Below are positions 36,764 through 55,259 of a DNA stretch of 64,000 nucleotides, piece by piece (the first letter of the stretch is position 1; each line of letters opens with the position of its first letter). The stretch spans positions 87,174 through 151,173 of the forward strand of contig DISH01000004.1 of NCBI GenBank assembly GCA_002421665.1. Direction: 5' to 3'. The translations under genes and the position numbers were made by a program. The notes beneath the pieces are model-generated. The model did not search any database and was not told the origin of the DNA. It was given only the letters and a program-made list of their open reading frames with translations. The stretch comes from Candidatus Omnitrophica bacterium UBA6215. GTDB taxonomy: Bacteria; Omnitrophota; Gorgyraeia; Pluralincolimonadales; Pluralincolimonadaceae.

Positions 36764-38086
36764 ATGAAGGCCTTCGATAAAAGGATACAACTCGCGGTCA
36801 TCGCCTTATGCGACCTCGCCGTCATTTATGTGAGCCTGGCGCTGGCGATATGGCTGTCTTACAGGACGGGGCTTATCGGCGAGGAACGGCTCGGCGTAAA
36901 ACTGCCGGAGTTCCTTTTTATGGGGCCGTATTTCATCTTCGTTTTCAAGAGCGTGGGGCTGTATAAGGAAAAGACGGGTATCCTGCACATCAGGGAGACG
37001 ATGGCGATATTTAAGGGAGTCTTGTTCGGTTTCCTTTTCGTCTTCATGATCTTCTTCCTTTTCCCGGGGCTTTCGGGCCTGCACAAGTCGCTCTTATTCT
37101 TTTTCGTTTTTATGATGGGTTTCATGCCGCCGGAACGCCTCTTCCTGCGCAAGCTGACCCAGGGCCTCCACGAGAGAGGGGTAGGGGTCACCAATACGCT
37201 CATTATCGGCACGGGAGCCGTAGCCAAGCGTCTCGCGATAAAACTCCACCAGATGCCGAAGATAGGATATAAACCCGTCAAGATCATCGCCGCCGCGTCC
37301 CAGCTCAAGGATGCCGTTGAGAAGAACGATATCGGCGCGGTCTTCGTCGCAGACCAGGACCTGCCCTATGACCAGGTCCTGGCGATAATGAACTTCTGCT
37401 CGGACAGTAAAGTGCCTTTCAAATTCGTGCCTTATATCTATAATATGCCCATAGACCTTATCTCCATGGACGATATAGAGGGCATCCCGGTCATCGGGCT
37501 GCGCAAATACAGCCCGCATTCGCTCTACGCCGTCTTCAAGCGCGCCGCCGATATAGCCGTATCATCGGCCCTGCTGCTGATCGCGCTTCCCGCGGGGATA
37601 TTGATAGCCCTGGCGGTCAGGATGGACTCCCGCGGTGCCGTGATATTCAGCCAGGAGCGCGCCGGCCAGAACGGCAAACCGTTCAGGATAATGAAATTCC
37701 GCACGATGTTCGTAAAATCGGCCAGGTACGAGTTCTCCCCGAAAGATTCGGGAGACCCGCGCATAACCGGGGTAGGCCGGTTCCTGCGCAAAACGGGCCT
37801 GGACGAGCTTCCCCAGCTTCTGAACGTCCTGAAAGGCGACATGAGCCTTGTAGGGCCGCGGCCTGAGATGGAATTCATCGTGAAAGAATACAGCGAAATA
37901 CAAAAAGAACGCCTTAAGGTAAAACCCGGCATCACGGGTTTGTGGCAGATAAGCGAACACCGCAGGGCGCCCATCCACGAGAACATGGAATACGACCTTT
38001 ACTACATAGAGAACCAAAGCCTGCTTTTAGACCTCGCCATACTCCTTCGTACTTTCTTCTCAGTTTTTGGCCTCAAAGGCAAGTAG
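36764..38086 (+). CDS. Polyprenyl-phosphate glycosylphosphotransferase, second copy (WbaP-like)
   Basis: Multi-TM N-terminus and the sugar-transferase domain (AVIFSQERAGQNGKPFRIMKFRTM...DELPQLLNVLKGDMSLVGPRPE). Confidence 0.85.
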   Translation: MKAFDKRIQLAVIALCDLAVIYVSLALAIWLSYRTGLIGEERLGVKLPEFLFMGPYFIFVFKSVGLYKEKTGILHIRETMAIFKGVLFGFLFVFMIFFLFPGLSGLHKSLLFFFVFMMGFMPPERLFLRKLTQGLHERGVGVTNTLIIGTGAVAKRLAIKLHQMPKIGYKPVKIIAAASQLKDAVEKNDIGAVFVADQDLPYDQVLAIMNFCSDSKVPFKFVPYIYNMPIDLISMDDIEGIPVIGLRKYSPHSLYAVFKRAADIAVSSALLLIALPAGILIALAVRMDSRGAVIFSQERAGQNGKPFRIMKFRTMFVKSARYEFSPKDSGDPRITGVGRFLRKTGLDELPQLLNVLKGDMSLVGPRPEMEFIVKEYSEIQKERLKVKPGITGLWQISEHRRAPIHENMEYDLYYIENQSLLLDLAILLRTFFSVFGLKGK

Positions 38087-38110
38087 AATGTGGTATAATT
38101 ATAAATTGAT

Positions 38111-39433
38111 ATGTTCAATAGGTTTAGCACAGACAAGAAGCGCCTGGCAGGCAATTTTTTCAGCCTTTCGGCGATAGAGGCGGCAAACTACCTTTTGCCG
38201 CTTATCACGGTGCCGTATCTGGTGCGCGTGCTCGGTCCGGCGAAGTTCGGTCTGGTAGCGTTCGCGCAGGCGCTTATACAGTATTTTATCACGTTCACCG
38301 ATTACGGTTTCCAACTTACCGCCACGCGCGCGATATCGGTGGCGAGGGAAGACGCAGGGAAGGTCTCGCGCATCTTCTCGGCGGTAACGCTCATTAAGGC
38401 CGGTTTCATGCTGGCGAGTTTCGCGGCGGTATCGGCCATAGTATTTTCCGTGCCGAAGTTCAGGCAGGACGCTCTTTTATATATTTTCGCTTTCGGGATG
38501 GTCATCGGCGACGTTCTATTTCCGGTGTGGCTCTTCCAGGGCCTTGAGAAGATGAAGTTCATAGCGGCTATCAACCTGCTTGCTCGCACAATATTTGTGC
38601 TCGCTATATTCGTCTTCGTCAGGAAAGAGTCAGATTACCTTTACGCGCCGCTTATAACCTCGGCGGGGACTATCGTAGCGGGGATAGTGAGCATGCTTGT
38701 CATTACCTCGCGGCTCGGGATAAAGTTCACAGTGCCGGCGCTTTCGGAGATCGCGGCGCACCTTAAAGAGGGCTGGAACGTCTTTATCTCGATGGTCTCG
38801 ATAAGTTTGATCACGACGAGCAACACGTTCTTCCTCGGGCTCTTCGCGCCCAGCGAGATAGTCGGCTACTACTCGGCGGGCGAGAAGATAATAAATCTCG
38901 TCAACAAGGCGTTCAACCCGATACTGGTAGCGGTATACCCGCATATCGCCAAGACAGCGGCCGAGGCGCGCGATATAGCGCTGATAAAGCTAAGGAAGCT
39001 CTTTGTGCTCGTGATGACGGCGTCTTTTGCGGTGTTTATCGGGATATTCGCGTTCAGCGGCCTGATAGTGGCGGTGGTGCTCGGCCCGAAGTTCGGGCCC
39101 ACGGAGGCGGTGCTCAGGGTATTGTCTCCGCTGGCTTTTGTGATACCCATAGCGTACATTTTCGCGAACCTCGGGCTGCTGCCGTTCAAGTTAGACAGGT
39201 ATTTCGCGAGGATATACATATTCGGCGGCATACTGAATATTTTACTTTTGATAATACTGGTGTATTTCTTGAAAACGGGGGCTATCGGCACTGCCCTGGC
39301 CGTGCTCGTAACCCAGACGTTTATAACGGCGCTGATGTGGAGGGTCTTGGGCAAGCACGGGATAAAGATAGTGAATATGGACATACCGCCGCTGTTGGCG
39401 GTATTCAACAATAAGGCGATAATAGACAATTAA
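38111..39433 (+). CDS. Wzx-type flippase (MOP superfamily), copy 2
   Basis: A 440-aa protein with about 12 TM segments. The N-terminal LPLITVPYLVRVLGPAKFGLVAFAQA is the RfbX/Wzx family motif. Confidence 0.75.
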   Translation: MFNRFSTDKKRLAGNFFSLSAIEAANYLLPLITVPYLVRVLGPAKFGLVAFAQALIQYFITFTDYGFQLTATRAISVAREDAGKVSRIFSAVTLIKAGFMLASFAAVSAIVFSVPKFRQDALLYIFAFGMVIGDVLFPVWLFQGLEKMKFIAAINLLARTIFVLAIFVFVRKESDYLYAPLITSAGTIVAGIVSMLVITSRLGIKFTVPALSEIAAHLKEGWNVFISMVSISLITTSNTFFLGLFAPSEIVGYYSAGEKIINLVNKAFNPILVAVYPHIAKTAAEARDIALIKLRKLFVLVMTASFAVFIGIFAFSGLIVAVVLGPKFGPTEAVLRVLSPLAFVIPIAYIFANLGLLPFKLDRYFARIYIFGGILNILLLIILVYFLKTGAIGTALAVLVTQTFITALMWRVLGKHGIKIVNMDIPPLLAVFNNKAIIDN

Positions 39434-39445
39434 CAGGAGGTCGGA

Positions 39446-40999
39446 ATGGACGAGATAACTTTAAGAGATTACCTGAAGGTCCTTTTCAGGCAGAAGTGGG
39501 TGGTCATCACGTCGATAGTTACGGTGACGGTCGTTACGGCGCTCGGGATCTGGATAAAGACGCCCACCTACGAGGCGACCGTTACCATGCAGGTATCGGC
39601 GCAGAAGGGCGTTGAAGCGCCGTATTACATGCCGCTTATAAATATGCAGAACATGCAAGTGGCGCTCAGCCAGAGCGAACTGGTAAAGTCCAATCCAGTC
39701 CTGGAGCGCGCCCTAAAGGCGATAGGCCTAAAGCCGCTCGATTTCGAGAAGAAGTTCGCGAGCGAGCCGAGGAAGAAGTTAATAAGCTGGCAGGTCGCCT
39801 CAATAAACAAAAAGATCGAGGAGATGAGCGCGAAGATAGAAGATCCGAAACTCGCCGAACAGCAGAAGCAGAATATCCTCTTTCGCATGGCGCTTAAAGA
39901 ACTCGAGGACAATATAAAGGTCGAGCCCGTTCGCGATACCAACCTTTTTACCATTTCATACAGGGATTTCGACCCCGGCGTGGCGGCGGCAATCGCGAAT
40001 ATCATCAGCCGTTCGTATGTCATATTTGACCTCGAACAGCAGTTAGCCGAGATGCAGGTCAAGTACGGAGACAAGAACCTCGCTGTCATACAGCTAAGCG
40101 ACAGCATATCGCGGATGGAGCAGAACCTCAACGGGCAGCTGCTCCCGAATATAGAGGCGATAGGCCCGGCGAGCGTCAAGATAGTGAACCAGGCGCTGCC
40201 GCCCATGAAGCCCACGGGCCTGCCGAATACGGTCATGCTCGCGCTCGCTATCTTCATGAGTGTATTCCTCGGCGTCATGCTCGCCTTCGGGTTCGATTAC
40301 CTTGACCAGTCTTTTAAGACGCCGCAGGAAGTGGAGGCGACGCTCGGCATGCCGTTTCTGGGCGCCATACCCATAAAACCCAAAGCCAACGACTACGAAC
40401 ATATCTCGGACCAACTCTGTTTCGAACTTAAGGACAGGAAACTAAAGTCCCTTATGATATCGGCGGCGTATCCCAAAGAGGGCGCCACCATGGCGATAAT
40501 GAGCCTGGCGAAGAGCGTCTCGGCAAAGTGCAGGCCGAAGGTGCTGGTGGTAGACGCCAACCTGCGCAAGCCTGCCATGCACACGGCCTTCAAGATAGCC
40601 AACAAGGCCGGGCTTGTGGACGTGCTGGAGGGGAGCGTTTCATTCGATGAGGCGGTCCATAAGGTCACAGAGAACCTCTCTGTTTTGACAAGCGGCAGGA
40701 TAAACATGAACCCGGGCACTTTGCTCGAGTCGCAGAAGATGGCGGTGCTTTTGGAACACGCCAAGGAAAAATACGACATTGTCTTTGTCGACTGCGTGAA
40801 CCTCAGGGAGGCTAAGGACGCGGTGGTATTGTGCCGCCACGTGGACAGCGTTGTCTTCATGGTAAAAGAAGGCCATACCCGCCGCCAGACCGCCAAGGAA
40901 GCTGTGGAGCTTCTGGCAAAGGCCAAGCCGGTATTTTTGGGCGCCATACTCGGAAGCAGGACGTATGTGATACCCAAGGCGATATACGAAAGGCTATGA
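39446..40999 (+). CDS. Polysaccharide co-polymerase with ATPase domain (Wzc-like), second copy
   Basis: Wzz-like N-terminal half with 2 TM segments and a C-terminal P-loop ATPase (AAYPKEGATMAIMSLAKS; VLVVDANLRKP; IVFVDCVNLREAKD). It is a paralog of the gene at 26821-28386. Confidence 0.75.
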   Translation: MDEITLRDYLKVLFRQKWVVITSIVTVTVVTALGIWIKTPTYEATVTMQVSAQKGVEAPYYMPLINMQNMQVALSQSELVKSNPVLERALKAIGLKPLDFEKKFASEPRKKLISWQVASINKKIEEMSAKIEDPKLAEQQKQNILFRMALKELEDNIKVEPVRDTNLFTISYRDFDPGVAAAIANIISRSYVIFDLEQQLAEMQVKYGDKNLAVIQLSDSISRMEQNLNGQLLPNIEAIGPASVKIVNQALPPMKPTGLPNTVMLALAIFMSVFLGVMLAFGFDYLDQSFKTPQEVEATLGMPFLGAIPIKPKANDYEHISDQLCFELKDRKLKSLMISAAYPKEGATMAIMSLAKSVSAKCRPKVLVVDANLRKPAMHTAFKIANKAGLVDVLEGSVSFDEAVHKVTENLSVLTSGRINMNPGTLLESQKMAVLLEHAKEKYDIVFVDCVNLREAKDAVVLCRHVDSVVFMVKEGHTRRQTAKEAVELLAKAKPVFLGAILGSRTYVIPKAIYERL

Positions 41000-41397
41000 A
41001 GATGATAAAGAAACTGAGCGTCTTAGCGGCATTCGCCATGTTCCCGTTCGCGGTATCGGGCAATTACGCCGAGGTAGCCCAGCCGAGGATCATCTCGCCG
41101 ACGGGCACGGTGGATATCTCTAACGGCGCGGTAGAGTTCAAGTGGTATTACAACATACGCGGCACGCAGGGGCAGGGGGGCAGTTATGAGATAGAGGTAT
41201 ACAAGGCCGGCATGATGGTCCAGAGCAACATTGTATATGAACAAAAGGTCCCGTTCGGGCAGGACAGCCTGCAGGTAGACGCCAAGCTCTTCCAGCCCGG
41301 GCAGGGGTATTCGTGGCAGATAAGGTTCATCAAGTACGACCTAAGGAAGAGTGATTGGGTGACGGGGAGTTTCAAGGTATCGGATGGGAGTAAATGA
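40996..41397 (+). CDS. Small secreted hypothetical protein
   Basis: The ATG at 40996 overlaps the upstream stop (ATGA). Signal peptide MKMIKKLSVLAAFAMFPFAVSG. 133 aa with no recognisable domain. Confidence 0.5.
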   Translation: MKMIKKLSVLAAFAMFPFAVSGNYAEVAQPRIISPTGTVDISNGAVEFKWYYNIRGTQGQGGSYEIEVYKAGMMVQSNIVYEQKVPFGQDSLQVDAKLFQPGQGYSWQIRFIKYDLRKSDWVTGSFKVSDGSK

Positions 41398-42836
41398 GTT
41401 TAAAGCAGAAGACAATAAAGGGCCTGTTCTGGTCTGGGGCGTCCCAAGCCGGCAAACAGATAAGCCAATTCATCATAACCGCTATTCTCGCGCGTCTCTT
41501 ATCCCCGAACGATTTCGGCCTCCTGGCGATGGCTACGGTATTTATCAACTTCGGGATGATATTCAGCGAGATGGGCATTAGCAGCGCCCTTATCCAGAAG
41601 CAGGATACCCACGACAGGCATTTTTACTCGGCGTTTTGGCTGAATGTTGTTGTCGGCGTGGTTTTAACGCTCATTTTTATCGCTATTTCACCTTTGATCG
41701 CGTGGTTTTACAAGAAGCCGGAACTGCAGATAATATTGACGGTAATATCCGTAAATTATTTCATTTCATCGTTCGTTGTCATCCAACAGACTATTCTTAC
41801 CAAGGAGATGGATTTTAAGAGCCTTGCCATAAGGGATATCATTGCCATTATCCTATCCGGCGGCGTCGGTATCTTCATGGCTTACCATGGTTTTGGGGTT
41901 TGGAGTTTAGTATTTCAATCTGTTGTATTTACGTTATCGAATGCTATATTGTTGTGGACCTTATCATCTTGGCGCCCGAAATTTCAATTTGCAAAATCTG
42001 ACATTAAGGACATATTTAAATTTGGTGCTAATATTACAGGATTTAATATTGTTAATTATTTTGCAAGAAATATCGATCAGCTGTTAATTGGTAAATTTCT
42101 TGGATCACAAGCATTGGGTTATTACTCTCTAGCGTATAAAATTCTATTGTACCCATTGCAATTTATGTCAGGAGTGATTGTAAGAGTGGTATTTCCTGCT
42201 TTTTCTAAGTTACAAAATAACATTGATAAGTTACGAATTTCATATATGAAAATGATAAAATTTCTGTCTTTGATAACATTCCCTATGATATTTGTATTGT
42301 ATGGGATTTCAACAGAGTTTATATTAACTATTTTTGGAAGTAAGTGGGCACCAGTTATTACCTTATTCAAAATATTCGCTTTCTGTGGACCTTTTCAATC
42401 ATTGATAACGGTAAATGGTACGATTTACTTATCAATTGGCAGATCGGATGTACAGTTCAGAATGCAGTTGATAGGGACTTTAGTTACCACTATATGTGTT
42501 ATATTTGGTCTCCAATATGGAGTTGTAGGAGTCGCTTTTGCATATACTATACAGTCAATCTTATATTTACAATATGCTCTATTTGTATCTAGGAGCATGA
42601 TTTGTTTAAAATCAAAGGATTTTTATTCTCTTCTAAAAGCGCCGCTACTAATTAGTAGCATAATTATTATTTTATTGTATATATATAAAATTATCTTTAG
42701 TCATTTCTCTTATCCTCAAATTGTGTATACATCATTACCATTGTGTTTAATAGCGTATATAGTATTGCTGTTCGTTTTTAAGGAAATTGGGGTAAAGAAT
42801 AATAGAATTAAAATACAACTGATAGAGTCTTATTAA
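41394..42836 (+). CDS. Wzx-type flippase, copy 3 (apparently chimeric: GC-rich 5' third, AT-rich 3' two-thirds)
   Basis: The N-terminal Wzx motif LLSPNDFGLLAMATVFINFGMIFSEMGISSALIQ is encoded in GC-rich DNA. Base composition drops sharply near 41880 to about 30% GC within the same reading frame. The protein is 480 aa. Confidence 0.75.
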   Translation: MSLKQKTIKGLFWSGASQAGKQISQFIITAILARLLSPNDFGLLAMATVFINFGMIFSEMGISSALIQKQDTHDRHFYSAFWLNVVVGVVLTLIFIAISPLIAWFYKKPELQIILTVISVNYFISSFVVIQQTILTKEMDFKSLAIRDIIAIILSGGVGIFMAYHGFGVWSLVFQSVVFTLSNAILLWTLSSWRPKFQFAKSDIKDIFKFGANITGFNIVNYFARNIDQLLIGKFLGSQALGYYSLAYKILLYPLQFMSGVIVRVVFPAFSKLQNNIDKLRISYMKMIKFLSLITFPMIFVLYGISTEFILTIFGSKWAPVITLFKIFAFCGPFQSLITVNGTIYLSIGRSDVQFRMQLIGTLVTTICVIFGLQYGVVGVAFAYTIQSILYLQYALFVSRSMICLKSKDFYSLLKAPLLISSIIIILLYIYKIIFSHFSYPQIVYTSLPLCLIAYIVLLFVFKEIGVKNNRIKIQLIESY

Positions 42837-42837
42837 T

Positions 42838-43944
42838 ATGAATTCAACTAAATTATGCGAATATATAATTAATTTAACTAACGATAGTATAATAAAACAA
42901 AATCGGGATGGGAGCATGCCCGCCGGTCACAATGGGCCTTGGAATAATATAGATACTCCGGTTAGAAATACGGCTCATTGGGCAATAACATTTTGCGAAA
43001 TATACAAATTGACTAAAGATAATAGATTTTTGGAGGCTGCATTTAAGGCTGCAGAGTATTTACTATCGAAACAGGCACGGCCAGGCGGAGTAGCTTATTT
43101 ATGCCGCATTGATGAAAATAAGAATTTTTCAAATGGCTTAATTGGACAAGCATGGGCAATCGAATCCTTATCACTTTTATATAAGTGCTTAGGTATCGAA
43201 AAGTGCAGGATTGTGGCCGAAGAGGTATTTATTAGCCATCCTTTTAACTATAAATTGGGTCTTTGGAATGCCATAGATATTTATGGAGAACCTCTCCCAG
43301 TTCATCGCACTTATAATCAACAATTATGGTTTGCCCTTTCTGGCATACTATTATTAAGTAGCGGTATAAATAATGAGTTGATTAAGGAAAGAGTGGGTAT
43401 TTACCTTTCAAATCTAGTTCAGCATACATATTTAGAGAAGGACGGTGTAATTAACCATCGAATATGGTTTACAGATAAACACGCAGATTTAAAACGGAAA
43501 ATAAAGGGAACATTAACAGATATCTCCTTGCGTTTAGATAAAAATTATTCAGAGATTTCAGCTGGTTACCATTCTTTTAATTTATATGCTTACGGGATGA
43601 TAAAAAAGTATTATTCCGGATACGTTAGTTTTTTTGATTCAAATATATTTAGACAAGTTAAGAGCAACTGTCTAAACAATAACTATCTGAGTTTATTAAA
43701 TACAAACAAATTTGCTTTTAAGTATAATCCAACTGGTTTTGAAATAGCATATTTTTGTGAAATGTTCGAGTTAAATAAGAACGGCAACGAGATTATGGCA
43801 AAAGATTTATTAGAAAAACAGCTTTGTTTTTATAATGATAAAATTGTTAGTTCAAATATTGATTACGATACCTTGTTTGCTAGAATTTATGAAGCAACTC
43901 GATTAAATGAATTTAATCTGCAATATATTAATGGTGAGTCATGA
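42838..43944 (+). CDS. Hypothetical protein in the low-GC cassette (possible alpha/alpha-toroid glycan-modifying enzyme)
   Basis: A 368-aa protein. The segment GHNGPWNNIDTPVRNTAHWAITF ... GLIGQAWAIESL is reminiscent of (alpha/alpha)6-barrel enzymes such as AGE, LanC-like or unsaturated glycosyl hydrolases. The family cannot be resolved by eye. Confidence 0.4.
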   Translation: MNSTKLCEYIINLTNDSIIKQNRDGSMPAGHNGPWNNIDTPVRNTAHWAITFCEIYKLTKDNRFLEAAFKAAEYLLSKQARPGGVAYLCRIDENKNFSNGLIGQAWAIESLSLLYKCLGIEKCRIVAEEVFISHPFNYKLGLWNAIDIYGEPLPVHRTYNQQLWFALSGILLLSSGINNELIKERVGIYLSNLVQHTYLEKDGVINHRIWFTDKHADLKRKIKGTLTDISLRLDKNYSEISAGYHSFNLYAYGMIKKYYSGYVSFFDSNIFRQVKSNCLNNNYLSLLNTNKFAFKYNPTGFEIAYFCEMFELNKNGNEIMAKDLLEKQLCFYNDKIVSSNIDYDTLFARIYEATRLNEFNLQYINGES

Positions 43945-44843
43945 AAAAGGATCTTCCGTTAATAAGTGTTATTATGCCTGCCTATAATGCGGAAGAAACA
44001 ATTGAGAAGGCAATATTATCGTTACTAAATTTAAACTATCCAAAAGAAAGAATCGAATTATTAATCGTAGATAATAATTCTAGCGATTCTACTGTAGATA
44101 TAATTGGCAAATATCCGGTGACATTGCTTCAAGAATGCGAAAAACAAAGTTCCTACGCAGCAAGAAATTTAGGTGTTAAAGTTGCAAAAGGAGAGATATA
44201 TGCTTTTACAGATGCTGACTGTATTGTTGATGTAAATTGGGTTATGATGGGTATCGAAGCTTTACAGAAAGCCGATTTAGTCGGAGGCAAAGTTGAATTT
44301 ATATATTCTGAGAAAAAAACGTCATCAGAAATGTATGATTCGCTAATTAGTATGGATAACGAGTTGTATATATTGAGCTCTAAGGGAGCTACAACGGCCA
44401 ACTTATTTGTTAAATCCAGTATTTTTTCTAAAATTGGTTTATTTGACGATACTGTCGTTTCTGGTGGAGACATGGAGTGGACGATAAGAGCTAGCAACTC
44501 AGGATATAAAATAGAATATTCCAACGCTGTTATAATAAGGCATCCGTCCAGAAAGTTTAAAGATTTGATGGCCAAAGGTTTTAGAGTTGGGACGGGATTT
44601 ATTAACATATGGCGTAAAAGCGGTCTATCGAGTAAACAGATATTAAGTAATATTTTTAGATTGTGCATACCGACGAGGCCCTATTATATAAGGAAGATGG
44701 TAAAAAGGCGCGGGACAACAGATATGTACAATAAAATAGCTCAGGTATGGTTAGTAGCATATTTGAGCAAATTGTCCCGAATCACAGGGATATTATTTTC
44801 ACTTGTTTCCAGAAGGAATAAAAATTGTTTGGGCCTAAAATGA
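43941..44843 (+). CDS. Family 2 glycosyltransferase (low-GC cassette)
   Basis: LISVIMPAYNAEETIEKAILSLLNLNYPKERIELLIVDNNSSDST. DAD motif (FTDADC). Confidence 0.8.
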   Translation: MKKDLPLISVIMPAYNAEETIEKAILSLLNLNYPKERIELLIVDNNSSDSTVDIIGKYPVTLLQECEKQSSYAARNLGVKVAKGEIYAFTDADCIVDVNWVMMGIEALQKADLVGGKVEFIYSEKKTSSEMYDSLISMDNELYILSSKGATTANLFVKSSIFSKIGLFDDTVVSGGDMEWTIRASNSGYKIEYSNAVIIRHPSRKFKDLMAKGFRVGTGFINIWRKSGLSSKQILSNIFRLCIPTRPYYIRKMVKRRGTTDMYNKIAQVWLVAYLSKLSRITGILFSLVSRRNKNCLGLK

Positions 44844-46228
44844 AAATATTACTAACAGTTTTAATAGCTTCAATAGCATTTTTAGCGGTAATATTCTTTC
44901 CAAAATATTTGTTGTATATATCAGGCTTATTGCTATTTGGTTGGTATGCAATATCGCCTGATTTAAAAAAGCTCGCCATTCTTACAATAGCCGTTACTGC
45001 GTTAATTTCACAGGGTTTATCAGAATACGTGCTTTCAATTAGACTGCTCGGATTCAATATTCATATTATTGAAATTATGATCGTTGTTATTTGGGCTGGT
45101 TGTTTTATAGCTGCATTGCGCGTAAAAGAGCAAATAAATGAGTTTCCAAAAGAATATTATTTTATGATTGTGTTTTATTTCATTGTTTTTATTTCAATAT
45201 TTAGAGGTGCTGATTATTCAATCAGCCATTCATTTTCTGCTTCTAGAGAGTTATTTTATTATTCCGTAGCTTTTATCGCATTTATTAAAATTAAAAAAAT
45301 GGAAGATGCCAAATTTGTTTTAAATGCTTTTTACTTAGGTATAATTTTATATTCAATAGAATTAATATCTGTCTATATTTGGAAGGGAAATCCTCTAAGA
45401 GAATTTATTAACCAGCAAGGTATATGGGGAGCGGGAAGAATTTCGTTCAGGAACCACCAATTATTACTTATATCTTTATCAGTTAGTTTTGCGATGTTTG
45501 GACTGAAGAAATATTCAAATAGATTTTTGAATATGGCAATATTTTTTATCAGTCTGATTTTTATAACGCTTGGAGAAAGTAGAATACTATTACTATGTGC
45601 AATTACATCTATAATAGCCGTATTTGTTTTATCGTTAATTAAAAGAAACTCAAATATTGATGTATCTAAATATTTTATTTTGTTTGCGGTTATTCTATCA
45701 ATAACTGTTTCCAGTCTAACATTATTGTTCTATGGAGATGCCGGAACTAAAGGAATTCCGTACGAGCTTAAGCAGAGGATTTCTAGTGTAAATAAGTTAA
45801 ACTTGGATAGCTCTTATAAGTTTAGGGAGCAGCAGTGGTTTAGAGAAATTAACAAAATAAGGAATTATTTGTGGTTCGGACAGGGTACAAAAGCATTCTA
45901 TAATGAGTTTGATCAAGACAATTTTGAAAATATATATTGGGATAATACCAATACTTTATTTATTAGAAAAGTCGGTTTGTTGGGTTATATTTTTATTTTA
46001 CTATTTTGTTTTTGTATATTTTATAAATTAATATATATCTATGTAACTTCTAGAGATCCATATATTTTGGCTATCACCATTGGTTTATTATCTATTATCC
46101 CTGGTTTTGTCATAAGGTTATTTACTTCTCCTTTTATGATTCAGCATAAAGGTATAGTTATATATGCAATATTGATGGGGTTGGTGCAACGAGTTTACTT
46201 AATAACGAAGTATGGCAAAATCAGTTGA
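44825..46228 (+). CDS. Wzy-like polymerase / O-antigen-ligase-like polytopic membrane protein (low-GC cassette)
   Basis: A 467-aa protein with 10 or more TM segments and a large loop containing ITLGESRILLL. This is a typical Wzy architecture. Confidence 0.6.
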   Translation: MFGPKMKILLTVLIASIAFLAVIFFPKYLLYISGLLLFGWYAISPDLKKLAILTIAVTALISQGLSEYVLSIRLLGFNIHIIEIMIVVIWAGCFIAALRVKEQINEFPKEYYFMIVFYFIVFISIFRGADYSISHSFSASRELFYYSVAFIAFIKIKKMEDAKFVLNAFYLGIILYSIELISVYIWKGNPLREFINQQGIWGAGRISFRNHQLLLISLSVSFAMFGLKKYSNRFLNMAIFFISLIFITLGESRILLLCAITSIIAVFVLSLIKRNSNIDVSKYFILFAVILSITVSSLTLLFYGDAGTKGIPYELKQRISSVNKLNLDSSYKFREQQWFREINKIRNYLWFGQGTKAFYNEFDQDNFENIYWDNTNTLFIRKVGLLGYIFILLFCFCIFYKLIYIYVTSRDPYILAITIGLLSIIPGFVIRLFTSPFMIQHKGIVIYAILMGLVQRVYLITKYGKIS

Positions 46229-46237
46229 TAGGTCATA

Positions 46238-47419
46238 ATGAAAATTTTGTATATAAACGAATGCATAAATAGAATTGATGGAAGTTCTGTTCATGCGAGA
46301 AGCATTATTAGGGAACTGCAGAATAAAGGAATAGTATTATTAACAATCCCAAACAAAAAAATTCTGAATCGTACATTTGAGCCAGGAGGTACATATAGAC
46401 TTGAATTATCTTTACCGGTTTTATATCGGGAAATTCTAGTGTTTTTAAAAAGTGTGTTGAAATGTATATACAACATAGCCCTCGTTTCATTTAAAATACC
46501 TATATTTAAACCAGATATAATAATGATTAGAACGGTTCCTTATGATTTTTTACCTCTATTTCTTAATTTTGTTGGGGTCAGAAAAATAATTTTGGAGGTT
46601 AATGCGCCTCATTATATAGAAAGAGAGATGTATTATAAAATTCAATACGATAAAAGCGTTCATTTAAGTTTAATGAAAAAAATTGAAATTGTATCGTGGA
46701 AATCCGTTGATGCTTTATATGTTGTGTCAAATGAACTGAAGGAAATGATTGAACATGAGGTTGGGTCTTGTAATCCGATCATAGAGGTTATCCCCAATGG
46801 TTCAGATCAAATTAATATAGTTGATGTTAAAGTAAATTGTGATATTGTAAAAATAGGATATTCAGGGAGTTTTCATAAATGGCATGGGGTTGAATTATTA
46901 GTAGAGGTTGCCAGAAAAATTCTTAAAGAATCGGATCGTATTGAATTTTATCTAATAGGAGACGGCGAAAATAAAAAGGCAATAGAGAATATTGTAAATA
47001 ACGATAGCTTATTAAAGGATAAAATTAAATTTACTGGATATTTAACACAAAAAGAAGTTTTGGACATCATGGTTACTATGGATATTTTAGTTGCACCATA
47101 TTTAAACATGGAAAAATTCTATTTTTCTCCGATTAAAATTATGGAATATATGGCCTGCGGTAGAGCCATTATAGCTTCGAGAGTTGGGCAAATTTCCCAA
47201 ATTATTCAAGATGGGGTAGATGGAGTACTAATTCCTCCAGGTTCTAGAGACGACCTAGTGATAGCAATTAAAACATTGGTTACGAATCCTGAATATAGGT
47301 TGAGTTTAGGGAGAATGGCATTAGAGAAATCAAAAGAACATACTTGGGAAACAGTTGCATCAAAAATATTATTGCTTACAAATAAAATAAATGAAAAAAA
47401 TAATAATATACAACGATAG
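46238..47419 (+). CDS. Family 4 (GT-B) glycosyltransferase
   Basis: C-terminal E-X7-E motif region SPIKIMEYMACGRAIIASRVGQISQIIQDGVDGVL. 393 aa. Confidence 0.8.
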   Translation: MKILYINECINRIDGSSVHARSIIRELQNKGIVLLTIPNKKILNRTFEPGGTYRLELSLPVLYREILVFLKSVLKCIYNIALVSFKIPIFKPDIIMIRTVPYDFLPLFLNFVGVRKIILEVNAPHYIEREMYYKIQYDKSVHLSLMKKIEIVSWKSVDALYVVSNELKEMIEHEVGSCNPIIEVIPNGSDQINIVDVKVNCDIVKIGYSGSFHKWHGVELLVEVARKILKESDRIEFYLIGDGENKKAIENIVNNDSLLKDKIKFTGYLTQKEVLDIMVTMDILVAPYLNMEKFYFSPIKIMEYMACGRAIIASRVGQISQIIQDGVDGVLIPPGSRDDLVIAIKTLVTNPEYRLSLGRMALEKSKEHTWETVASKILLLTNKINEKNNNIQR

Positions 47420-48488
47420 TAAAATCTTCGGCGGACATGAAGTAATGTCTGCCGAAATTGCTAATGAATTGTCAGAGAAATACACTATTTGGTATGTTAG
47501 TTATAGCCGAGATATAGAAAGCCATTTGAATAATTCAATCAAATTTGTAAAAACAAACGTTAAATCATGTTTAACAATATTCGGTTTGGGTAGTTACAGT
47601 ATCTTTGACATAGTTAAGTTATACATATTATTTAAACGAATACAACCAGATTTAGTTATAATTTGTCAAGGTACTATTGAAGTGGGTCTTAAGGGAATGT
47701 GGGCATCAAAACTCTGTAGATATAAAACAATCAGCTATATTCCATTATGCTACAGTTTTAGTGAAATTAAATCTTTTATGGGATGCTGGAGGGATATCAT
47801 AGCTAGTTACTATTATAGGGTTTTTGATGCGATTATTACTATTTCTGGGGAACAAAAAGAGCTTCTTTCTCATAGAGTGGATAAAAAGGTATATATTTTA
47901 AACAATGCTGTCGACGGTAAATGTGATAATGGATATCTGTCTCCACTTAAAAAAGATGAACCGGTGGTTATCGGTATCATAGGTCGAATATCATTTGTTC
48001 AAAAAGGTCAAAATAAAATAATTGGCATAGCAAACAAGGTTAAGAGTCTTAAAATTAATGTTATATTTAGAATTATAGGTGACGGTGAAGATGCTGATAA
48101 TATGAGAGCAAGTATACGCGCGAATGGATTAGACAAAATGATTTATGTTGATAATTGGGAAAAGGATAGGCGGATATTATATAAAGGAATCAATATTGTA
48201 CTTATAACATCAAACTATGAAGGCGTCCCATTAGTTATGCTTGAATCGATACTATTTGGTAAATATGTAATAGCGCCAAATATGGGGATATTCAAAGAAT
48301 ATTTGGATAAGGATTTCTTGTATAATTCTATTAATGATGCTGCGGGAATTATATGCAGAGTAATTGAAAATTATAATGAGTATAGGTATAAATTTGATAA
48401 ATCATATAGGTTGGTTATAGAAAATAATAACAGAGAAACTTTTAGAAGCAATTTATTTAGCATTATTGATGAAATAACATCAAATTAG
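47391..48488 (+). CDS. Family 4 (GT-B) glycosyltransferase
   Basis: EGVPLVMLESILFGKYVIAPNMG motif. 365 aa. Confidence 0.75.
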   Translation: MKKIIIYNDSKIFGGHEVMSAEIANELSEKYTIWYVSYSRDIESHLNNSIKFVKTNVKSCLTIFGLGSYSIFDIVKLYILFKRIQPDLVIICQGTIEVGLKGMWASKLCRYKTISYIPLCYSFSEIKSFMGCWRDIIASYYYRVFDAIITISGEQKELLSHRVDKKVYILNNAVDGKCDNGYLSPLKKDEPVVIGIIGRISFVQKGQNKIIGIANKVKSLKINVIFRIIGDGEDADNMRASIRANGLDKMIYVDNWEKDRRILYKGINIVLITSNYEGVPLVMLESILFGKYVIAPNMGIFKEYLDKDFLYNSINDAAGIICRVIENYNEYRYKFDKSYRLVIENNNRETFRSNLFSIIDEITSN

Positions 48489-48490
48489 AT

Positions 48491-49600
48491 ATGAAAATTA
48501 TCCATATAGTAAGACAATTTTACCCATGTATTGGCGGAGTTGAAAATTATATTTACAATTTGTCGAAAACACAGCTTGCGGCTGGGAACGATGTTACGGT
48601 TTTAACTCTAAACAAGAATCTTTGCACTAAAGAGGATCTCTCTGATAACGAAATAATAGAAGGAATTAAGATTAAGAGGATACCATTTACGGGCAGCAAA
48701 AGATATCCAATCGCTTTATCGAGCGTTACTAATTTAGACGGTTGTGACATTGTTAACATTCATTGTGTTGATTCTTTTATTGATTATCTAGGAATTTTAA
48801 AACCGTTTCATAAAAAACGAATTATTCTTAGCACACACGGAGGTTATTTCCATACAAAATGGCTTAAAATCCTTAAGCAGGTATATTTTTATACGGTCAC
48901 AAGAATAATTTTGTATAGTTGTGACAAAATTATAGCAAACAGTAATAGTGATCATATTTTATTTAAAAAAATCAGTAATAATGTAGTAAGAGTTGATAAT
49001 GGCGTGGAAGTAGAAGCATTTAGTTCAGTTAGCAAGAATATAGAGTTCGGTTATCTTTTATACATTGGTAGATTGGATTCCCACAAGCGTATTGATAATT
49101 TAGTCCGTACGATCCCTTTTTTGCTAAAAAAGAATATTAATGTTAAATTGGGAATCATAGGACCAGATTGGAATGATACAAGGAAGGGGTTAGAACATAT
49201 AGCCAAGGGTTTAGGTATTAAAAATTCAATAAATTTTATGGGGAGCTTGAGCAGGGATAATCTGCTTAATGAGTTGTCTAAAGCTCATTTGTTTGTTTCC
49301 GCATCTGAATATGAAGGATTTGGAATTTCAGCGATTGAAGCAATGGCTTCTGGAACACCCTGTGTTTTAAATGATATTGCGTCATTCAGGGATTTCATTG
49401 CTACTTCAAAAGCTGGTGCGCTTGTCAATTTCAATGATCATGAACAAGCTGCGCGGGCCATATCGAATATTATATGCATGGATAAAATTAACTATGATCT
49501 AATGGCATTAAATGCTAAAAAGAAGGCAAAAGAATATTCCTGGGAAACGGTTGGTAAGGCGGTGATGAAAGTATATGAGGATGTTTTATATCAAAAATGA
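48491..49600 (+). CDS. Family 4 (GT-B) glycosyltransferase
   Basis: EGFGISAIEAMASGTPCVLNDIASFRDFI motif. 369 aa. Confidence 0.8.
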   Translation: MKIIHIVRQFYPCIGGVENYIYNLSKTQLAAGNDVTVLTLNKNLCTKEDLSDNEIIEGIKIKRIPFTGSKRYPIALSSVTNLDGCDIVNIHCVDSFIDYLGILKPFHKKRIILSTHGGYFHTKWLKILKQVYFYTVTRIILYSCDKIIANSNSDHILFKKISNNVVRVDNGVEVEAFSSVSKNIEFGYLLYIGRLDSHKRIDNLVRTIPFLLKKNINVKLGIIGPDWNDTRKGLEHIAKGLGIKNSINFMGSLSRDNLLNELSKAHLFVSASEYEGFGISAIEAMASGTPCVLNDIASFRDFIATSKAGALVNFNDHEQAARAISNIICMDKINYDLMALNAKKKAKEYSWETVGKAVMKVYEDVLYQK

Positions 49601-50334
49601 TACTATTCGGAATTGAATATGAAAATATCAGTAAGGCTGTTGCTTTGGAGAAAATATTCGGCCTGCTAAGCACTTCTTCTAAATCATCCGTCTATTTCTT
49701 AAATGCAGATTGTCTCAATATTTCTCTTAGGGATGGGCAGTATAGAGATATTCTTAAATCAGCAAGTTTAGTATTGCCCGATGGAATTGGACTTAAAATT
49801 GCTACTAAAATATTTGGCGGTAAGATGGAAGAAGATTGTAATGGGACAGACCTCAGCCCTTTGATAATGGGAAAAGCAGCAAAGGATGAATATAGAATTT
49901 ATTTGCTGGGGGGAAGAGAGGGAGTAGCTGAAAAGGCCGCCAAAAATATTAGTAAACAGATCGCGGGTATTAAAATCGTAGGCACTAATTCAGGTTATTT
50001 TAGCGAAGACAGCGAAATAATTAGTGATATTAATAATTCAGGGGCTGATATTCTTTTTGTTGCGATGGGTGTGCCATTACAGGAAAAATGGATTGCTAAA
50101 CACAGACAAGATCTGAATCCTCGTTTATGTTTGGGGGTTGGAGCCCTTTTTGATTATCTTTCAGGAAGGATACCGCGCGCGCCGATATTTATGCGTAAAA
50201 TTCATCTTGAGTGGTTGTGGCGGATATTTATAGAACCCAAGAGGATGTTCAAAAGGTATATTATCGAAGGCGCAAAATTATTCTGGTGCATTTTGAAGTA
50301 TAGACTTACTGCAAAGTGTTCTGAATTAAAATAG
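49597..50334 (+). CDS. WecB/TagA/CpsF-family glycosyltransferase (GT26, UDP-ManNAc/ManNAcA transferase-like)
   Basis: LPDGIGL...YLLGGREGVAEKAAKNI...KIVGTNSGYF...ILFVAMGVPLQEKWI matches the WecG/TagA family. 245 aa. Confidence 0.8.
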   Translation: MILFGIEYENISKAVALEKIFGLLSTSSKSSVYFLNADCLNISLRDGQYRDILKSASLVLPDGIGLKIATKIFGGKMEEDCNGTDLSPLIMGKAAKDEYRIYLLGGREGVAEKAAKNISKQIAGIKIVGTNSGYFSEDSEIISDINNSGADILFVAMGVPLQEKWIAKHRQDLNPRLCLGVGALFDYLSGRIPRAPIFMRKIHLEWLWRIFIEPKRMFKRYIIEGAKLFWCILKYRLTAKCSELK

Positions 50335-51751
50335 GCGAAGTTCCCCACTCGTATTTTCCGGAAGTACTCCAGCCGCTTCCTGTATTTTTAATTTGACGTA
50401 CGATAGGTATTGCGGGGTTATCTCCTTCAAGAAATATCCTGCTTCCATAAGAGCATAATATTAACTGTTGGGAATTAGCGCTAATTTCGAAATAATTTTG
50501 TATATAGTTAAAGCAATCTTTTGATTCCCACCCTCTTCCAAAATCAAACTGGAACAACCCGTCCCAATCTTCCTGCCTGGCTGTCTTGGCGAGCAGGGTA
50601 GGGGTTTCATAAGCGTATGGGTTTGGATAGCAATGGTTCCACTCGCTTATGACATAGGGCATATTCTTCGGCGCGCGTTTCTTGAACTCGCCTATTATCC
50701 CGAGGTTTTTGTCCGCCAGCAAAGACTTATTATGCATACGGAAATCATTCATGTCCCATGATTTATTCGGGAATTTCGGATGGTCCCAGTAGCCGTGCTT
50801 GTCAACATAATCAAGGCATTCCCGCTGAAGCTCCAACTGCTTGTCGTTCCAATGGCCGCCTATTCCAATAGGGACTTTGACCCCTACCTTATTCCTTAAA
50901 TAGTCCCTCATATCGAAAAGATAACGTTTCTCAAGGTCTGGCAAAGGGATCTTGCCGTTATCCGATAGGGTCTTTAATTCGTTTTGGTAATATTCGGGTA
51001 ACTTGGAAGGGTTAAGTTCGACAAGGGTGTTTTCGTTATTTATCTCGACCAGGCAAACAGCCGGGTCATCGCAATAGCGCAGCTTTGTGTATGGGTTCAG
51101 GTGCGTCAGGAGGTCCTTCGAATACTGTTTCTGGAGCTCTATAATGCGCGCGTCGAACAATGAGACGGGCTTGGCGGCCATGCCGAGTTTTTCGGCGTCC
51201 CTGACGCCGTCGGCCTCGGTAAAGAAACGCGAGACGAGGGTGTTGATATTTACATAAATGCCGCGTTGTTTGAGCTGGTAGATAAGATAATCGAGCTTGT
51301 CTAATTGGCGCGGGCTAAGGTGCCCGGTAGGTTTCAACTGCTTGTTCTTGTAAGCCGGGGCGGTGTCCTCAAATATCCCGTTCGGCTCAAAGAAATAATC
51401 CATATGGTGCAGGCGCACAGCATTGAACCCGAAATACGCGATGCGGTTCGCCATTACCTCGGCGTCTTTGTGCTCGGGGAAGCACGCACCGAAGCAGAGA
51501 TTCGTTCCCCAGAAGCGCGCGCGGGTACCGTCCTCGAAATAAAAATGGCCGTCCTTGACTTTCACGAAGCCATGCTTGCCCGCGGGAGGGTCCAGGACGT
51601 CTTTGCCAGCGTTGAACGCCGTTGCCGGGATACCCATGTAATCCGGCGCCTTCGCCGGGTCGGCGGGGAAGTAGTAGGGGAACCAACCCTCTTCGGCGTG
51701 TGCCGTGCCTGACAAAAATATAAGTACAAGCAAAAACAGGAACTTTTTCAT
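50306..51751 (-). CDS. Secreted TIM-barrel glycoside hydrolase-like protein (GH5-like)
   Basis: Signal peptide MKKFLFLLVLIFLSGTAHA. Motifs FNAVRLHHMD, VEINNEN (candidate acid/base) and ISEWN (candidate nucleophile). It is GC-rich, unlike its neighbours, and convergent with the cassette. Confidence 0.5.
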   Translation of the reverse strand: MKKFLFLLVLIFLSGTAHAEEGWFPYYFPADPAKAPDYMGIPATAFNAGKDVLDPPAGKHGFVKVKDGHFYFEDGTRARFWGTNLCFGACFPEHKDAEVMANRIAYFGFNAVRLHHMDYFFEPNGIFEDTAPAYKNKQLKPTGHLSPRQLDKLDYLIYQLKQRGIYVNINTLVSRFFTEADGVRDAEKLGMAAKPVSLFDARIIELQKQYSKDLLTHLNPYTKLRYCDDPAVCLVEINNENTLVELNPSKLPEYYQNELKTLSDNGKIPLPDLEKRYLFDMRDYLRNKVGVKVPIGIGGHWNDKQLELQRECLDYVDKHGYWDHPKFPNKSWDMNDFRMHNKSLLADKNLGIIGEFKKRAPKNMPYVISEWNHCYPNPYAYETPTLLAKTARQEDWDGLFQFDFGRGWESKDCFNYIQNYFEISANSQQLILCSYGSRIFLEGDNPAIPIVRQIKNTGSGWSTSGKYEWGTSPILIQNTLQ

Positions 51752-51889
51752 ATTAAGATTATATCACGTAAAAATAATATAGATGAAAGAAAATCGTATT
51801 AAAATTGACAATGCCGGAAGTAGATGTCATAATTTCATTAAGCTGTTTTGTAGTTTTAAAGTGAAAAGGGGCATGGGTAAAAATCCAAA

Positions 51890-52942
51890 ATGAAAATTAT
51901 TAATTCCGATATCTATGATAATACGAATTGGATCTGGTACCTTAAAGGCTGTGCCATATTAGGTATAGTTCTATTTCATTGGTTTTCTTATTATTTAAGC
52001 GAAACGTGTGTATTTGCGGTTAATTTCGGAGGGCAGGGAGTACATGTATTTATTATTTTAAGCGCGTTTGGTATTTATTTATCATATGAAAAATCACATC
52101 CTAAGTGGGGTATCTGGTGCCGCAAACGTTTTTTCAAAATAATATTACCTTATTATTCCTCCATATTACTTGTAGTTTTCTCAATATTGATATTTGGTGT
52201 AGTTTCCGGTAATGTTGGAAGATATTTAGGAATGTCAGGTCTCAGCATAGGATCCTTGGTTGCCTCAGTTTTACTATATAGAGCGTTTATAGATAAGTAT
52301 GTATTGATAATTAATTCCCCGTGGTGGTTTATCGTTACGATCTTGGAGTTATACCTGATTTTCCCATTGTTATATCGTTGCTTTAAGAAATATGGTTGGA
52401 TGATTATATTGGGTTCCTTGGTCATAACGGTAGGTTATGAAGTGTATTACGCTGTTATCTTAATGTCGGATAGCGTTGTATATAGCAAATTCTTTTTAGC
52501 GTTTCTTTTTGAGTATACCAGCGGGATAATTCTGGCGGACATTTATATAAACAGGATCGCTGTTTTTAAGAAAATTACCATAGGGCTTGTTCCGTTTATG
52601 TTTGGTTTGCTTATGGAGATGATTGGGATAATCCTAGCTTTCCATGGGCCAAAAGGCAGAGCTTTTAACGATGTTTTTAATTCTGTAGGATATTTTTTGA
52701 TTTTAATAAATATAGTTAATTATTTATGCAAATATAAAATTATAACCCGTTCCTTTTATTGGCTGGGTAGATATTCTTTATCGATATTCCTTGTCCATGC
52801 TCCTTACATATACTTGATATATAACAATTACAGAAATGGCGGTATTAAAAGTAGCTTGGTATATTTACCCGGTTATTTGATCGTCGTGGGCTCCATTTCA
52901 TATATATTTCAGAAATGTCTGTCAAAATATAGCAATGTTTGA
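51890..52942 (+). CDS. Acyltransferase family 3 membrane protein (OafA/WecH-like O-acetyltransferase), low-GC
   Basis: N-terminal NWIWYLKGCAILGIVLFHW, the Acyl_transf_3 hallmark, and 10 TM segments. 350 aa. Confidence 0.75.
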   Translation: MKIINSDIYDNTNWIWYLKGCAILGIVLFHWFSYYLSETCVFAVNFGGQGVHVFIILSAFGIYLSYEKSHPKWGIWCRKRFFKIILPYYSSILLVVFSILIFGVVSGNVGRYLGMSGLSIGSLVASVLLYRAFIDKYVLIINSPWWFIVTILELYLIFPLLYRCFKKYGWMIILGSLVITVGYEVYYAVILMSDSVVYSKFFLAFLFEYTSGIILADIYINRIAVFKKITIGLVPFMFGLLMEMIGIILAFHGPKGRAFNDVFNSVGYFLILINIVNYLCKYKIITRSFYWLGRYSLSIFLVHAPYIYLIYNNYRNGGIKSSLVYLPGYLIVVGSISYIFQKCLSKYSNV

Positions 52943-53182
52943 TTGTAATTATTTTTAAATAAGGATAAGGAAAGCGAGCGGGGTCTTTAAGTTTGACCCA
53001 GTGATCGTTAAGAGCATCACAAAACTGGGAACAGGGGAGAAGGCGTCCTAAGGGTCCCGCAATGGCGTTGCTTAAAGTAGCTGAAGCCGCGCCGGACGCA
53101 GTGACGAAGGCGTTAAATAGTTGGAAGAAAATTCTTCCTCAGGTGTCCATAAATTCTACCCTAAAAAGACAAAATATTTCAT

Positions 53183-53210
53183 TTGACTTTTTCGGCATTT
53201 TTGGTAAAAT
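53183..53210 (+). promoter_or_regulatory. Candidate sigma70 promoter (TTGACT-16-TAAAAT) for the PEP-CTERM gene array
   Basis: TTGACT at 53183-53188, a 16-nt spacer and TAAAAT at 53205-53210. This is about 110 nt upstream of the first PEP-CTERM gene. Confidence 0.45.
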
Positions 53211-53321
53211 TATCACAATGCATTGATGTGCACCCGCCTGTTAAAATTCCAATGACGGAATAGGTTTTTTGGTACAGATATGTCTTGTAATTTCACTGCC
53301 TTACAAAACAGGAGCAGCAAG

Positions 53322-54511: not shown

Positions 54512-54514
54512 AAA

Positions 54515-55222: not shown

Positions 55223-55259
55223 ATTTCGGGCGAGAGAAAACAATTAGGGGGATGGGAAG

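Follow-up and report, generated by a model that had tools for sequence, protein, structure and literature searches.

In the cps locus of Streptococcus pneumoniae and the K loci of Klebsiella, conserved 5' genes for export and regulation are followed by a type-specific cassette of wzy, wzx and glycosyltransferase (GT) genes, and new capsule types arise through recombination in these loci. We describe here a polysaccharide locus from Candidatus Omnitrophica bacterium UBA6215 (assembly GCA_002421665.1), contained in a window of 64,000 nt (the whole stretch of DNA analysed: contig DISH01000004.1, positions 87,174-151,173 of the forward strand). The gene in question is wzx, at 41394-42836 in window coordinates, within which GC content falls abruptly at the left edge of a low-GC block of glycan genes. 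The explanation that we favour, and hold to be very probably correct, is that one Wzx/Wzy glycan cassette was replaced allelically by another, through a double homologous crossover with an unsampled donor that was low in GC and had the same locus layout.

The enterobacterial O-antigen (rfb) clusters, as in the galactose-initiated set of Salmonella, have a low-GC central block of serogroup-specific genes (wzx, wzy and glycosyltransferases) between shared flanking genes (Reeves et al. 2013, PMC3715488). The blocks have demarcated junctions, some of which lie inside shared genes, and whole blocks move by homologous recombination (PMC3715488). The locus in the window likewise has a low-GC central block, shared flanks and intragenic junctions. 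However, in the O-antigen clusters wzx belongs to the variable block, with junctions in flanking genes or genes of sugar pathways such as rml; in the window the junction crosses the flippase gene itself, and residues 1-256 of its product belong to the conserved backbone. In the cps and K loci too the arrangement differs, the boundary lying between genes or in regulatory and export genes and the flippase being wholly type-specific. Again unlike the O-antigen clusters, the window comes from an uncultured member of the Omnitrophota and its polymer is probably an exosortase-associated exopolysaccharide (EPS) rather than a proven O antigen. With the XrtA/EpsH exosortase/PEP-CTERM EPS loci the window shares EpsH, EpsI, a tyrosine-autokinase co-polymerase, an initiating transferase and putative PEP-CTERM proteins, although its PEP-CTERM matches fall under the curated cut-offs. 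No account of a natural chimeric or mosaic wzx came to light in phrase searches of the literature. The mechanism that we propose is ordinary and well known, and this is a new instance of it; a modular flippase that is mosaic across its clade is modestly novel.

The GC content of the host is about 54% and positions 1-41393 of the window, at 54.2%, reflect this, against 31.8% in 41886-50334. In profile, GC remains at 52-58% until about 41.5 kb, lies at 23-40% over about 41.9-50.4 kb and then returns to the host level, a stretch broken by a further dip at 51.75-53.3 kb. At third codon positions, the GC fraction (GC3) is 0.71-0.77 in neighbouring host genes and 0.23-0.33 in every gene of the cassette. 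For comparison, syntenic loci were recovered from L005, an Omnitrophota metagenome-assembled genome (MAG), and L090, both of other species than the window (Wzz 67-79% identical in amino acids); L009, the closest relative, was also employed. The features on which the argument depends are as follows.

41394-42836, forward strand: wzx, encoding a chimeric but intact MOP/Wzx flippase of 480 residues with 14 transmembrane (TM) helices (PF13440, NF007773, AlphaFold2 model).
41394-41885, forward strand: segment A of wzx, codons 1-164 (TM1-5), backbone-like; GC3 0.62; nucleotide identity 89.8% to L009 and 79.5% to L005.
41874-41907, forward strand: left junction, given as the GC3 support interval, at the turn between TM5 and TM6, next to the conserved G-F-G-V-W-S-L-V motif.
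41886-42161, forward strand: segment B of wzx, codons 165-256 (TM6, TM7 and the first half of TM8); GC3 0.25, protein conserved in the clade.
42162-42836, forward strand: segment C of wzx, codons 257-480 (second half of TM8 to TM14), the cassette-linked orphan part.
50306-51751, reverse strand: convergent gene for a 481-residue protein, containing the right junction; low in GC over its last 80 codons (50306 to about 50548) and host-like elsewhere.

Change points were located by maximum likelihood on third codon positions, with a 2-log-likelihood support interval and significance assessed through 300 permutations. In wzx GC3 changes at codon 164 (nt 41886; support 41874-41907; log-likelihood ratio (LLR) 30; 0 of 300 permutations), from 0.62 before that point to 0.26 after it. 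None of seven control genes in the locus has a significant GC3 step inside it (p 0.21-0.97). The discontinuity inside wzx that a first-pass annotation of the sequence had placed at about 41.9 kb is therefore real and where it was put, and the low GC reported beyond about 41880 is likewise confirmed. The same annotation credited the 5' part of the gene with 55-60% GC, which is too high: the first 492 nt have 45.9% (50.6% over 41394-41660 and 40.4% over 41661-41885), and their GC3 is below that of the neighbours. A change point calculated from all bases falls earlier, at 41662, to the left of the GC3 step, because codon positions 1 and 2 of this membrane protein are AT-rich. An independent measure, nucleotide identity between wzx and its L009 counterpart, falls from 90.9% to 78.7%, with its change point placed at codon 150 (support 87-182, p<0.005), in overlap with the GC3 step.

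Protein comparisons place a second boundary within the gene. The best homologues of Wzx are 87-93% identical over residues 1-164 and about 50% over the remainder, but the step in protein identity against them lies at residues 250-257, not at 164; a two-piece model split at codon 164 was dropped in consequence, in favour of the three segments listed above. The chimeric flippase of the first-pass annotation accordingly stands, with three ancestry segments in place of its two, and the separate test of the parts of the protein gave them different affinities, residues 257-480 finding nothing above about 40% identity over most of their length. Third-position identity to L009 is 78% in codons 1-164 and 55% in codons 165-256. 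In the first segment the high-GC syntenic relatives are 8-20 points nearer to the window than the low-GC ones. In codons 165-256 nucleotide identity is compressed to 72-79% for all relatives (78.6% for L009), which are roughly equidistant. Codons 257-480 are 33% identical in amino acids to L009 and 31-48% identical across the relatives. At third positions segment A is as close to L005 and L090 (52-53%) as Wzz and wzxB are (49-57%), from which it follows that this segment diverged together with the backbone, under strong purifying selection. Segment B, in turn, is low in GC yet encodes protein conserved in the clade, so that the donor wzx would have been of the same clade and the crossover would have fallen within the shared module, before the point at about codon 257 where homology usually ends.

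The right edge mirrors the left. At codon 401 of the convergent gene (about nt 50548) GC3 drops to 0.32 from 0.66 (LLR 16.2, 0 of 300 permutations), giving an island from about 41886 to about 50548, 8.7 kb in length. Amino acid identity to the L005 orthologue is 73.8% over codons 251-400, 54.4% over codons 401-481 and 57% overall. The 481-residue protein has no Pfam or NCBIfam match; the L005 orthologue bears a CBM_4_9 domain. The low-GC run had earlier been extended to the eight genes following wzx. Seven complete genes (42838-50334) and the last 80 codons of the convergent gene do belong to it, but the one further low-GC gene, encoding an acyltransferase, is separate and follows after 1.2 kb of host-like sequence. 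The seven complete genes are these.

42838-43944, forward strand: cassette gene 1, AglQ-like; homologues named AglQ, best identity 42%.
43941-44843, forward strand: cassette gene 2, family-2 glycosyltransferase (PF00535, E 3.9e-26); GC3 0.32.
44825-46228, forward strand: cassette gene 3, Wzy-type polymerase (Wzy_C, PF04932, 33.8 bits, cutoff 31.7).
46238-47419, 47391-48488 and 48491-49600, forward strand: cassette genes 4-6, GT4 glycosyltransferases (Glycos_transf_1/Glyco_transf_4); GC3 0.23-0.29.
49597-50334, forward strand: cassette gene 7, WecG/TagA-family (GT26) glycosyltransferase (PF03808, E 1.5e-61), the last complete low-GC gene.

The product of gene 1 has no Pfam domain, and some of its homologues carry the annotation of a putative glycan-biosynthesis isomerase; the name AglQ comes from an archaeal N-glycosylation cluster of Haloferax.

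Signs of mobile elements were sought at the island. No integrase or transposase domain was found in the open reading frames (ORFs) of the locus scanned with Pfam, the tRNA scan gave none at the island edges, no convincing direct repeats flank the island in a repeat scan, and blastn against phage and plasmid sequences gave no match. The only tRNA cluster, at 61088-61362, is about 10 kb away and comprises tRNA-Lys(CTT), tRNA-Leu(TAG) and tRNA-Gly(GCC). A site-specific integrative genomic island was accordingly rejected. Both ends of the island lie inside genes that are homologous in relatives, and with mobile signals lacking this is the anatomy of double-crossover allelic replacement. Such a reading demands a donor of the same layout, whose wzx, on the left, was of this clade and whose convergent gene, on the right, was the same.

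Comparison with the two syntenic loci shows what was exchanged. Residues 1-164 of Wzx are 90% identical to L005 and L090 and residues 165-256 are 87% and 83% identical, respectively, while over residues 257-480 identity is about 35% and the cassettes beyond are unrelated, their genes being absent or at most 37% identical. Thus cassette gene 7 is only 33-37% identical in amino acids to WecG of L005 and L090, and the Wzy at 44825-46228 has no homologue in any related locus compared. Nucleotide homology to L005 covers 37877-42160, is then interrupted, and restarts at 50321. The homologous replacement of downstream genes envisaged in the first-pass annotation is thus supported by the GC steps, by the synteny with L005 and L090, by the intragenic right junction and by the lack of mobile-element hallmarks. 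Each of the tests that the annotation had named as able to refute it was carried out, and none did so. In L005 an AbiEii-domain gene and a 212-residue ORF, at 2573-4011 of that locus, lie between wzxB and Wzz; this insertion, which the window does not have, resembles a module of toxin-antitoxin or abortive-infection type inside an EPS locus.

Polysaccharide clusters are frequently of lower GC than their genomes, and L005 and L090 are no exception, with cassette GC of 0.40 and 0.37 compared to flank GC of 0.51 and 0.53, respectively. Low GC might then be intrinsic and selected, for example through expression control or the codon usage of membrane proteins, with wzx simply straddling the boundary and no transfer having taken place. 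We find this scarcely credible: it leaves unexplained why nucleotide and synonymous identity to L009 drop where the GC does, why the cassette has no homology at all to the cassettes of syntenic relatives and why the convergent gene has a mirror-image GC3 step, and the other two Wzx/Wzy modules of the window are host-like, with GC3 of 0.75-0.77.

By the allelic replacement that we favour, an 8.7-kb block (about 41886 to about 50548) would have been exchanged with a donor locus of the same architecture and about 30% GC. The block would comprise the repeat-unit genes, namely the 3' two-thirds of wzx, the AglQ-like gene, one GT2 gene, the Wzy gene, three GT4 genes and WecG. The left crossover would have occurred at about codon 164 of wzx, inside the clade-conserved N-terminal module of 256 residues, and the right crossover about 80 codons before the stop of the convergent gene. 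The product would be an in-frame flippase of continuous fold, host-type in TM1-5, donor-type but near-identical as protein from TM6 to the middle of TM8, and cassette-specific from there to TM14. The low-GC DNA would have entered the present host recently, and a changed surface polysaccharide would probably have resulted.

The lower GC of the L005 and L090 cassettes also bears on the age of the exchange, as does the intragenic GC3 step that L090 has of its own, at codon 268 of wzx. A GC3 step is present in L009 as well, at about codon 162, the same place as in the window, and mosaicism extends across the clade. These observations suit an old cassette polymorphism in the Omnitrophota gene pool, in which the GC step would mark the extent of flank homogenisation, according to the model of Reeves for Salmonella; junction gradients are described there (PMC3715488). 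This explanation differs from ours in timing and source only, the mechanism being the same. Long residence in a genome with GC3 of about 0.73 should, however, have caused drift, whereas the cassette is still at 0.23-0.33 and the step is supported to within about 33 nt, and the less extreme composition of the other cassettes suggests different donors or residence times. We consider an old polymorphism unlikely.

Several observations nevertheless tell against a single, simple replacement as we have described it. The GC3 of segment A, 0.62, is below the host range of 0.71-0.77. Upstream of wzx, L009 groups with L005 (77-87% nucleotide identity) and the window is the outlier (53-71%), whereas over codons 1-164 the window and L009 are nearest neighbours, an arrangement incongruent with the upstream region; 'native' is therefore an approximation where segment A is concerned, and more than one exchange shaped wzx. 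Since L009 shares the position of the step, the junction could predate the present cassette. The longest patches of nucleotide identity shared with relatives are at codons 53-62 and 137-141, and the junction is off them, so that a crossover hotspot on the longest patch is not supported. An alternative cassette in conspecifics was not found, all of about 19 contigs with identical flanks carrying this one, so that the event is deduced from comparisons between species. Nor did the searches described below yield a donor. From these phylogenetic conflicts the 5' end of wzx appears to be a zone of repeated exchange, with more than one event apparently recorded in the window gene. At the start codon of wzx the tree changes its topology, the window now pairing with L009 (89.8% nucleotide identity), and the ORF immediately upstream is itself divergent.

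40996-41397, forward strand: 133-residue ORF with no assigned function, its stop overlapping the wzx start (ATGA); fast-diverging.

This ORF has no match among Pfam or NCBIfam profiles. Its product is about 50% identical in amino acids to those of relatives, with the window copy as the outlier: over most of the length nucleotide identity is 52-55% for the window but 65-77% among L009, L005 and L090.

The junctions are reproducible. Eighteen contigs carry the exact Wzx protein and 19 the exact flank proteins, all having the same gene order, from seven samples (ERZ27315056, JGI 3300001592, JGI 3300001594, SRR943316, SRR943318, SRR943321 and SRR942928). One Logan contig of 17,143 bp crosses both island edges, and other contigs with the same proteins include some of 388-505 kb. 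Metagenome assembly could in principle create such a structure, through a jump between co-occurring relatives at the wzx module and a return downstream, and it is true that both junctions lie in regions homologous between lineages and that one contig, L173, ends 41 nt before wzx. Yet the loci from four assemblies (ENA/MEGAHIT, JGI and Logan) align to the window at 99.97-100% identity, and reading frames are kept at both junctions. The exact runs that diverged alleles have in common, moreover, are only about 14-26 nt long, which is not enough for bridging in de Bruijn graphs, and we attach next to no weight to an assembly chimera. In the comparison of loci proposed in the first-pass annotation, L005 and L090, which are of other species, have the same backbone and other cassettes, and the contigs with identical flanks all hold the same cassette. 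L173, a Logan contig from SRR942928 with an identical backbone, stops at window position 41353; this end might be a graph branch reflecting strain heterogeneity at the conserved 5' end of wzx, or simply a result of low coverage.

The search for a donor was extensive. For the C-terminal third of Wzx, a word-indexed search of 5.8 billion proteins yielded one match, of 39% identity, and an exhaustive HMMER scan of 1.84 billion representatives gave best identities of 38-41% over most of the length, together with one 108-residue fragment at 46%. No donor was found for the AglQ-like gene 1 either, with the best database identity at 42%. In a set of 108 full-length homologues, the C-terminal third of the window protein ranks third in isolation. 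The same wzx clade does have low-GC members (L007, L010, L011, L091, L093 and L101, with 31-38% GC), making a donor of suitable type plausible, and the donor was most probably a low-GC member of the same broad lineage. The description of the island as foreign DNA consequently holds in a compositional and phylogenetic sense only, without a donor taxon that can be named.

A source within the same genome would do away with the need for transfer between genomes: recombination or gene conversion between paralogous loci with this wzx clade could have moved the cassette. Contig Ga0172381_10000605 (43.6 kb) does carry two such loci, L090 and L094, and the window itself has three tandem polysaccharide modules. 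Over Wzx residues 1-256, L090 is 87% and L094 74% identical to the window, and the GC of their cassettes is 0.37 and 0.50, respectively. A resident paralogue would be expected to resemble its host in composition, as the 0.50 of L094 illustrates, and the other two wzx genes within the 64-kb window are of a different family, about 22% identical or less. Intragenomic exchange is, in our judgement, quite improbable.

The product of the chimeric gene has every appearance of a complete flippase. It scores 336 bits with PF13440 (Polysacc_synt_3; cutoff 23, E 2.4e-100), matching profile positions 1-292 of 293, and 316.8 bits with NF007773 of NCBIfam (cutoff 273). The AlphaFold2 model, calculated from a 57-sequence alignment, has 14 long helices, a pLDDT confidence of 90.4 and a pTM of 0.88, with confidence not reduced at codon 164. 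Sequence searches gave no PDB match for Wzx and a fold search was required; the best PDB matches by Foldseek were MurJ (6nc6 and 7wax, TM-score 0.73-0.78) and WzxE (9g9n). Like those MOP flippases, the window protein passes the curated cut-offs (Polysacc_synt_3 and NF007773) and its predicted 14-helix fold superposes on them; it differs in being only 13-18% identical to the solved structures and in being a natural chimera of at least two alleles. Codon 164 lies at the TM5/TM6 turn beside a near-invariant GFGVWSLV sequence and residue 257 is in the middle of TM8, with 33 of 37 invariant alignment columns falling within residues 1-256. The gene start overlaps its upstream neighbour (ATGA) and a 1-nt spacer follows its end, which indicates translational coupling on both sides. 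In frame, coupled and structurally continuous in the model, the chimeric Wzx is most likely functional.

Higher identity in the N-terminal than in the C-terminal part was rejected as stand-alone evidence of exchange: half of the other homologue pairs show the same asymmetry, which is unusable alone because the N-terminus is more conserved family-wide. A stronger observation comes from pairs that are 80-95% identical in Wzx residues 1-256, whose identity in the C-terminal third spans 32-91%, a spread that rules out rate heterogeneity alone. Across 16 loci, identity in the C-terminal third correlates with the similarity of the 3 kb downstream (Spearman 0.44) and identity in residues 1-256 with the similarity of upstream DNA (Spearman 0.46), although both figures are indicative only since the locus pairs are not independent. 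Judged from these alignments, mosaicism appears to be common in this wzx clade. More tentatively, residues 1-256, which make up the N-lobe, TM7 and the first half of TM8, may be a generic part of the protein that remains linked to the conserved initiating transferase and co-polymerase and doubles as the left homology arm, while the middle of TM8 to TM14 may be cassette-linked and carry repeat-unit specificity, across a clade of Omnitrophota and Planctomycetota; this we offer as a possibility about which we are ourselves rather doubtful.

The backbone genes to the left of wzx, and a further low-GC gene to the right of the island, are as follows.

36764-38086, forward strand: initiating phosphoglycosyl transferase (Bac_transf, PF02397, E 5.5e-66), backbone; GC3 0.73.
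38111-39433, forward strand: second MOP flippase gene, wzxB (Polysacc_synt, PF01943, E 6.4e-56), backbone.
39446-40999, forward strand: polysaccharide co-polymerase/tyrosine autokinase with Wzz and kinase domains (Pfam Wzz; TIGR01007), backbone.
51890-52942, forward strand: putative O-acyltransferase (Acyl_transf_3, PF01757, E 1.7e-23) in a separate low-GC islet; GC 0.33.

The 3' end of the transferase gene aligns to L005 at 84% nucleotide identity. Kept in the syntenic relatives, wzxB is 78% identical in amino acids to its L005 and L090 counterparts, and the Wzz/kinase protein, which scores 115.7 bits with TIGR01007 of NCBIfam (cutoff 108), is 79% identical to that of L005 and 67% to that of L090. 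A Wzx/Wzy pathway context is provided by the Bac_transf gene at 36764, the Wzz/kinase gene at 39446, Wzy_C at 44825 and the GT2, GT4 and GT26 genes of 43941-50334, and the locus is best explained as an exosortase-linked, Wzx/Wzy-dependent exopolysaccharide locus. MOP-flippase genes begin at 29835, 38111 and 41394, so that the first-pass annotation was correct in calling the last of these the third wzx. Polysaccharide functions are tandemly repeated over 23824-50334: a first run consists of an initiating transferase (23824), a Wza-like exporter (25110), a co-polymerase (26821), a Wzy (28379) and a wzx (29835), and a second of an initiating transferase (36764), a wzx (38111), a co-polymerase (39446), a wzx (41394) and a Wzy (44825). 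All of these genes that lie outside the island are host-like in GC.

The islet has sharp GC edges, at about 51750 and about 53000-53300, and is separated from the island by about 1.2 kb of host-like sequence; its acyltransferase gene may be one for glycan modification that was acquired on its own. Directly upstream of this gene, at 51805-51833, is the region's strongest sigma-70-like site; promoter-like and terminator-like sites in general occur at chance-level frequency. Further downstream, four ORFs with weak, sub-threshold matches of PEP-CTERM type (53280-55844) adjoin EpsI (55845-56513, reverse strand) and the exosortase EpsH (56510-57367, reverse strand). It is therefore in the neighbourhood of exosortase-associated EPS genes that the swapped cassette lies, and this adjacency suggests that the cassette and exosortase function may be linked.

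At its opposite end the window has an anaerobic energy-metabolism block (5-16317), with a NuoF-like subunit and a group A6 [FeFe] hydrogenase (5-3463), aspartate ammonia-lyase (3865-5262), the maturases HydF, HydG and HydE (5171-8839) and an Mbh/Ech-like membrane hydrogenase or antiporter complex (9518-16317). The housekeeping proteins of the window ([FeFe] hydrogenase, HydE, HydG and aspartate ammonia-lyase) belong to clusters, drawn at 90% identity or more, that include proteins from several MAGs of 'Candidatus Omnitrophota bacterium', while its EPS-locus proteins form singleton clusters. The nearest species-representative genomes are MAGs of Omnitrophota and Planctomycetes, at 64-79%, the window's own species being absent from that set.

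In practical terms, an 8.7-kb tract of 32% GC in a 54% GC genome is one that composition-based binning and annotation pipelines could mishandle. For the flippase family, the seam in wzx, taken with the pattern across the clade of a conserved N-terminal two-thirds and a cassette-linked C-terminal third, leads to a testable hypothesis as to which helices read the repeat unit; if it is true, natural chimeras would be ready-made domain swaps with which to locate the determinants of substrate specificity in Wzx. For the Omnitrophota, a phylum known almost only from metagenomes, the locus would document the switching of glycan cassettes by homologous recombination, and the diversifying pressures (phage, predators and hosts) and the genetic mechanism familiar from enteric and streptococcal pathogens appear to be active there too.

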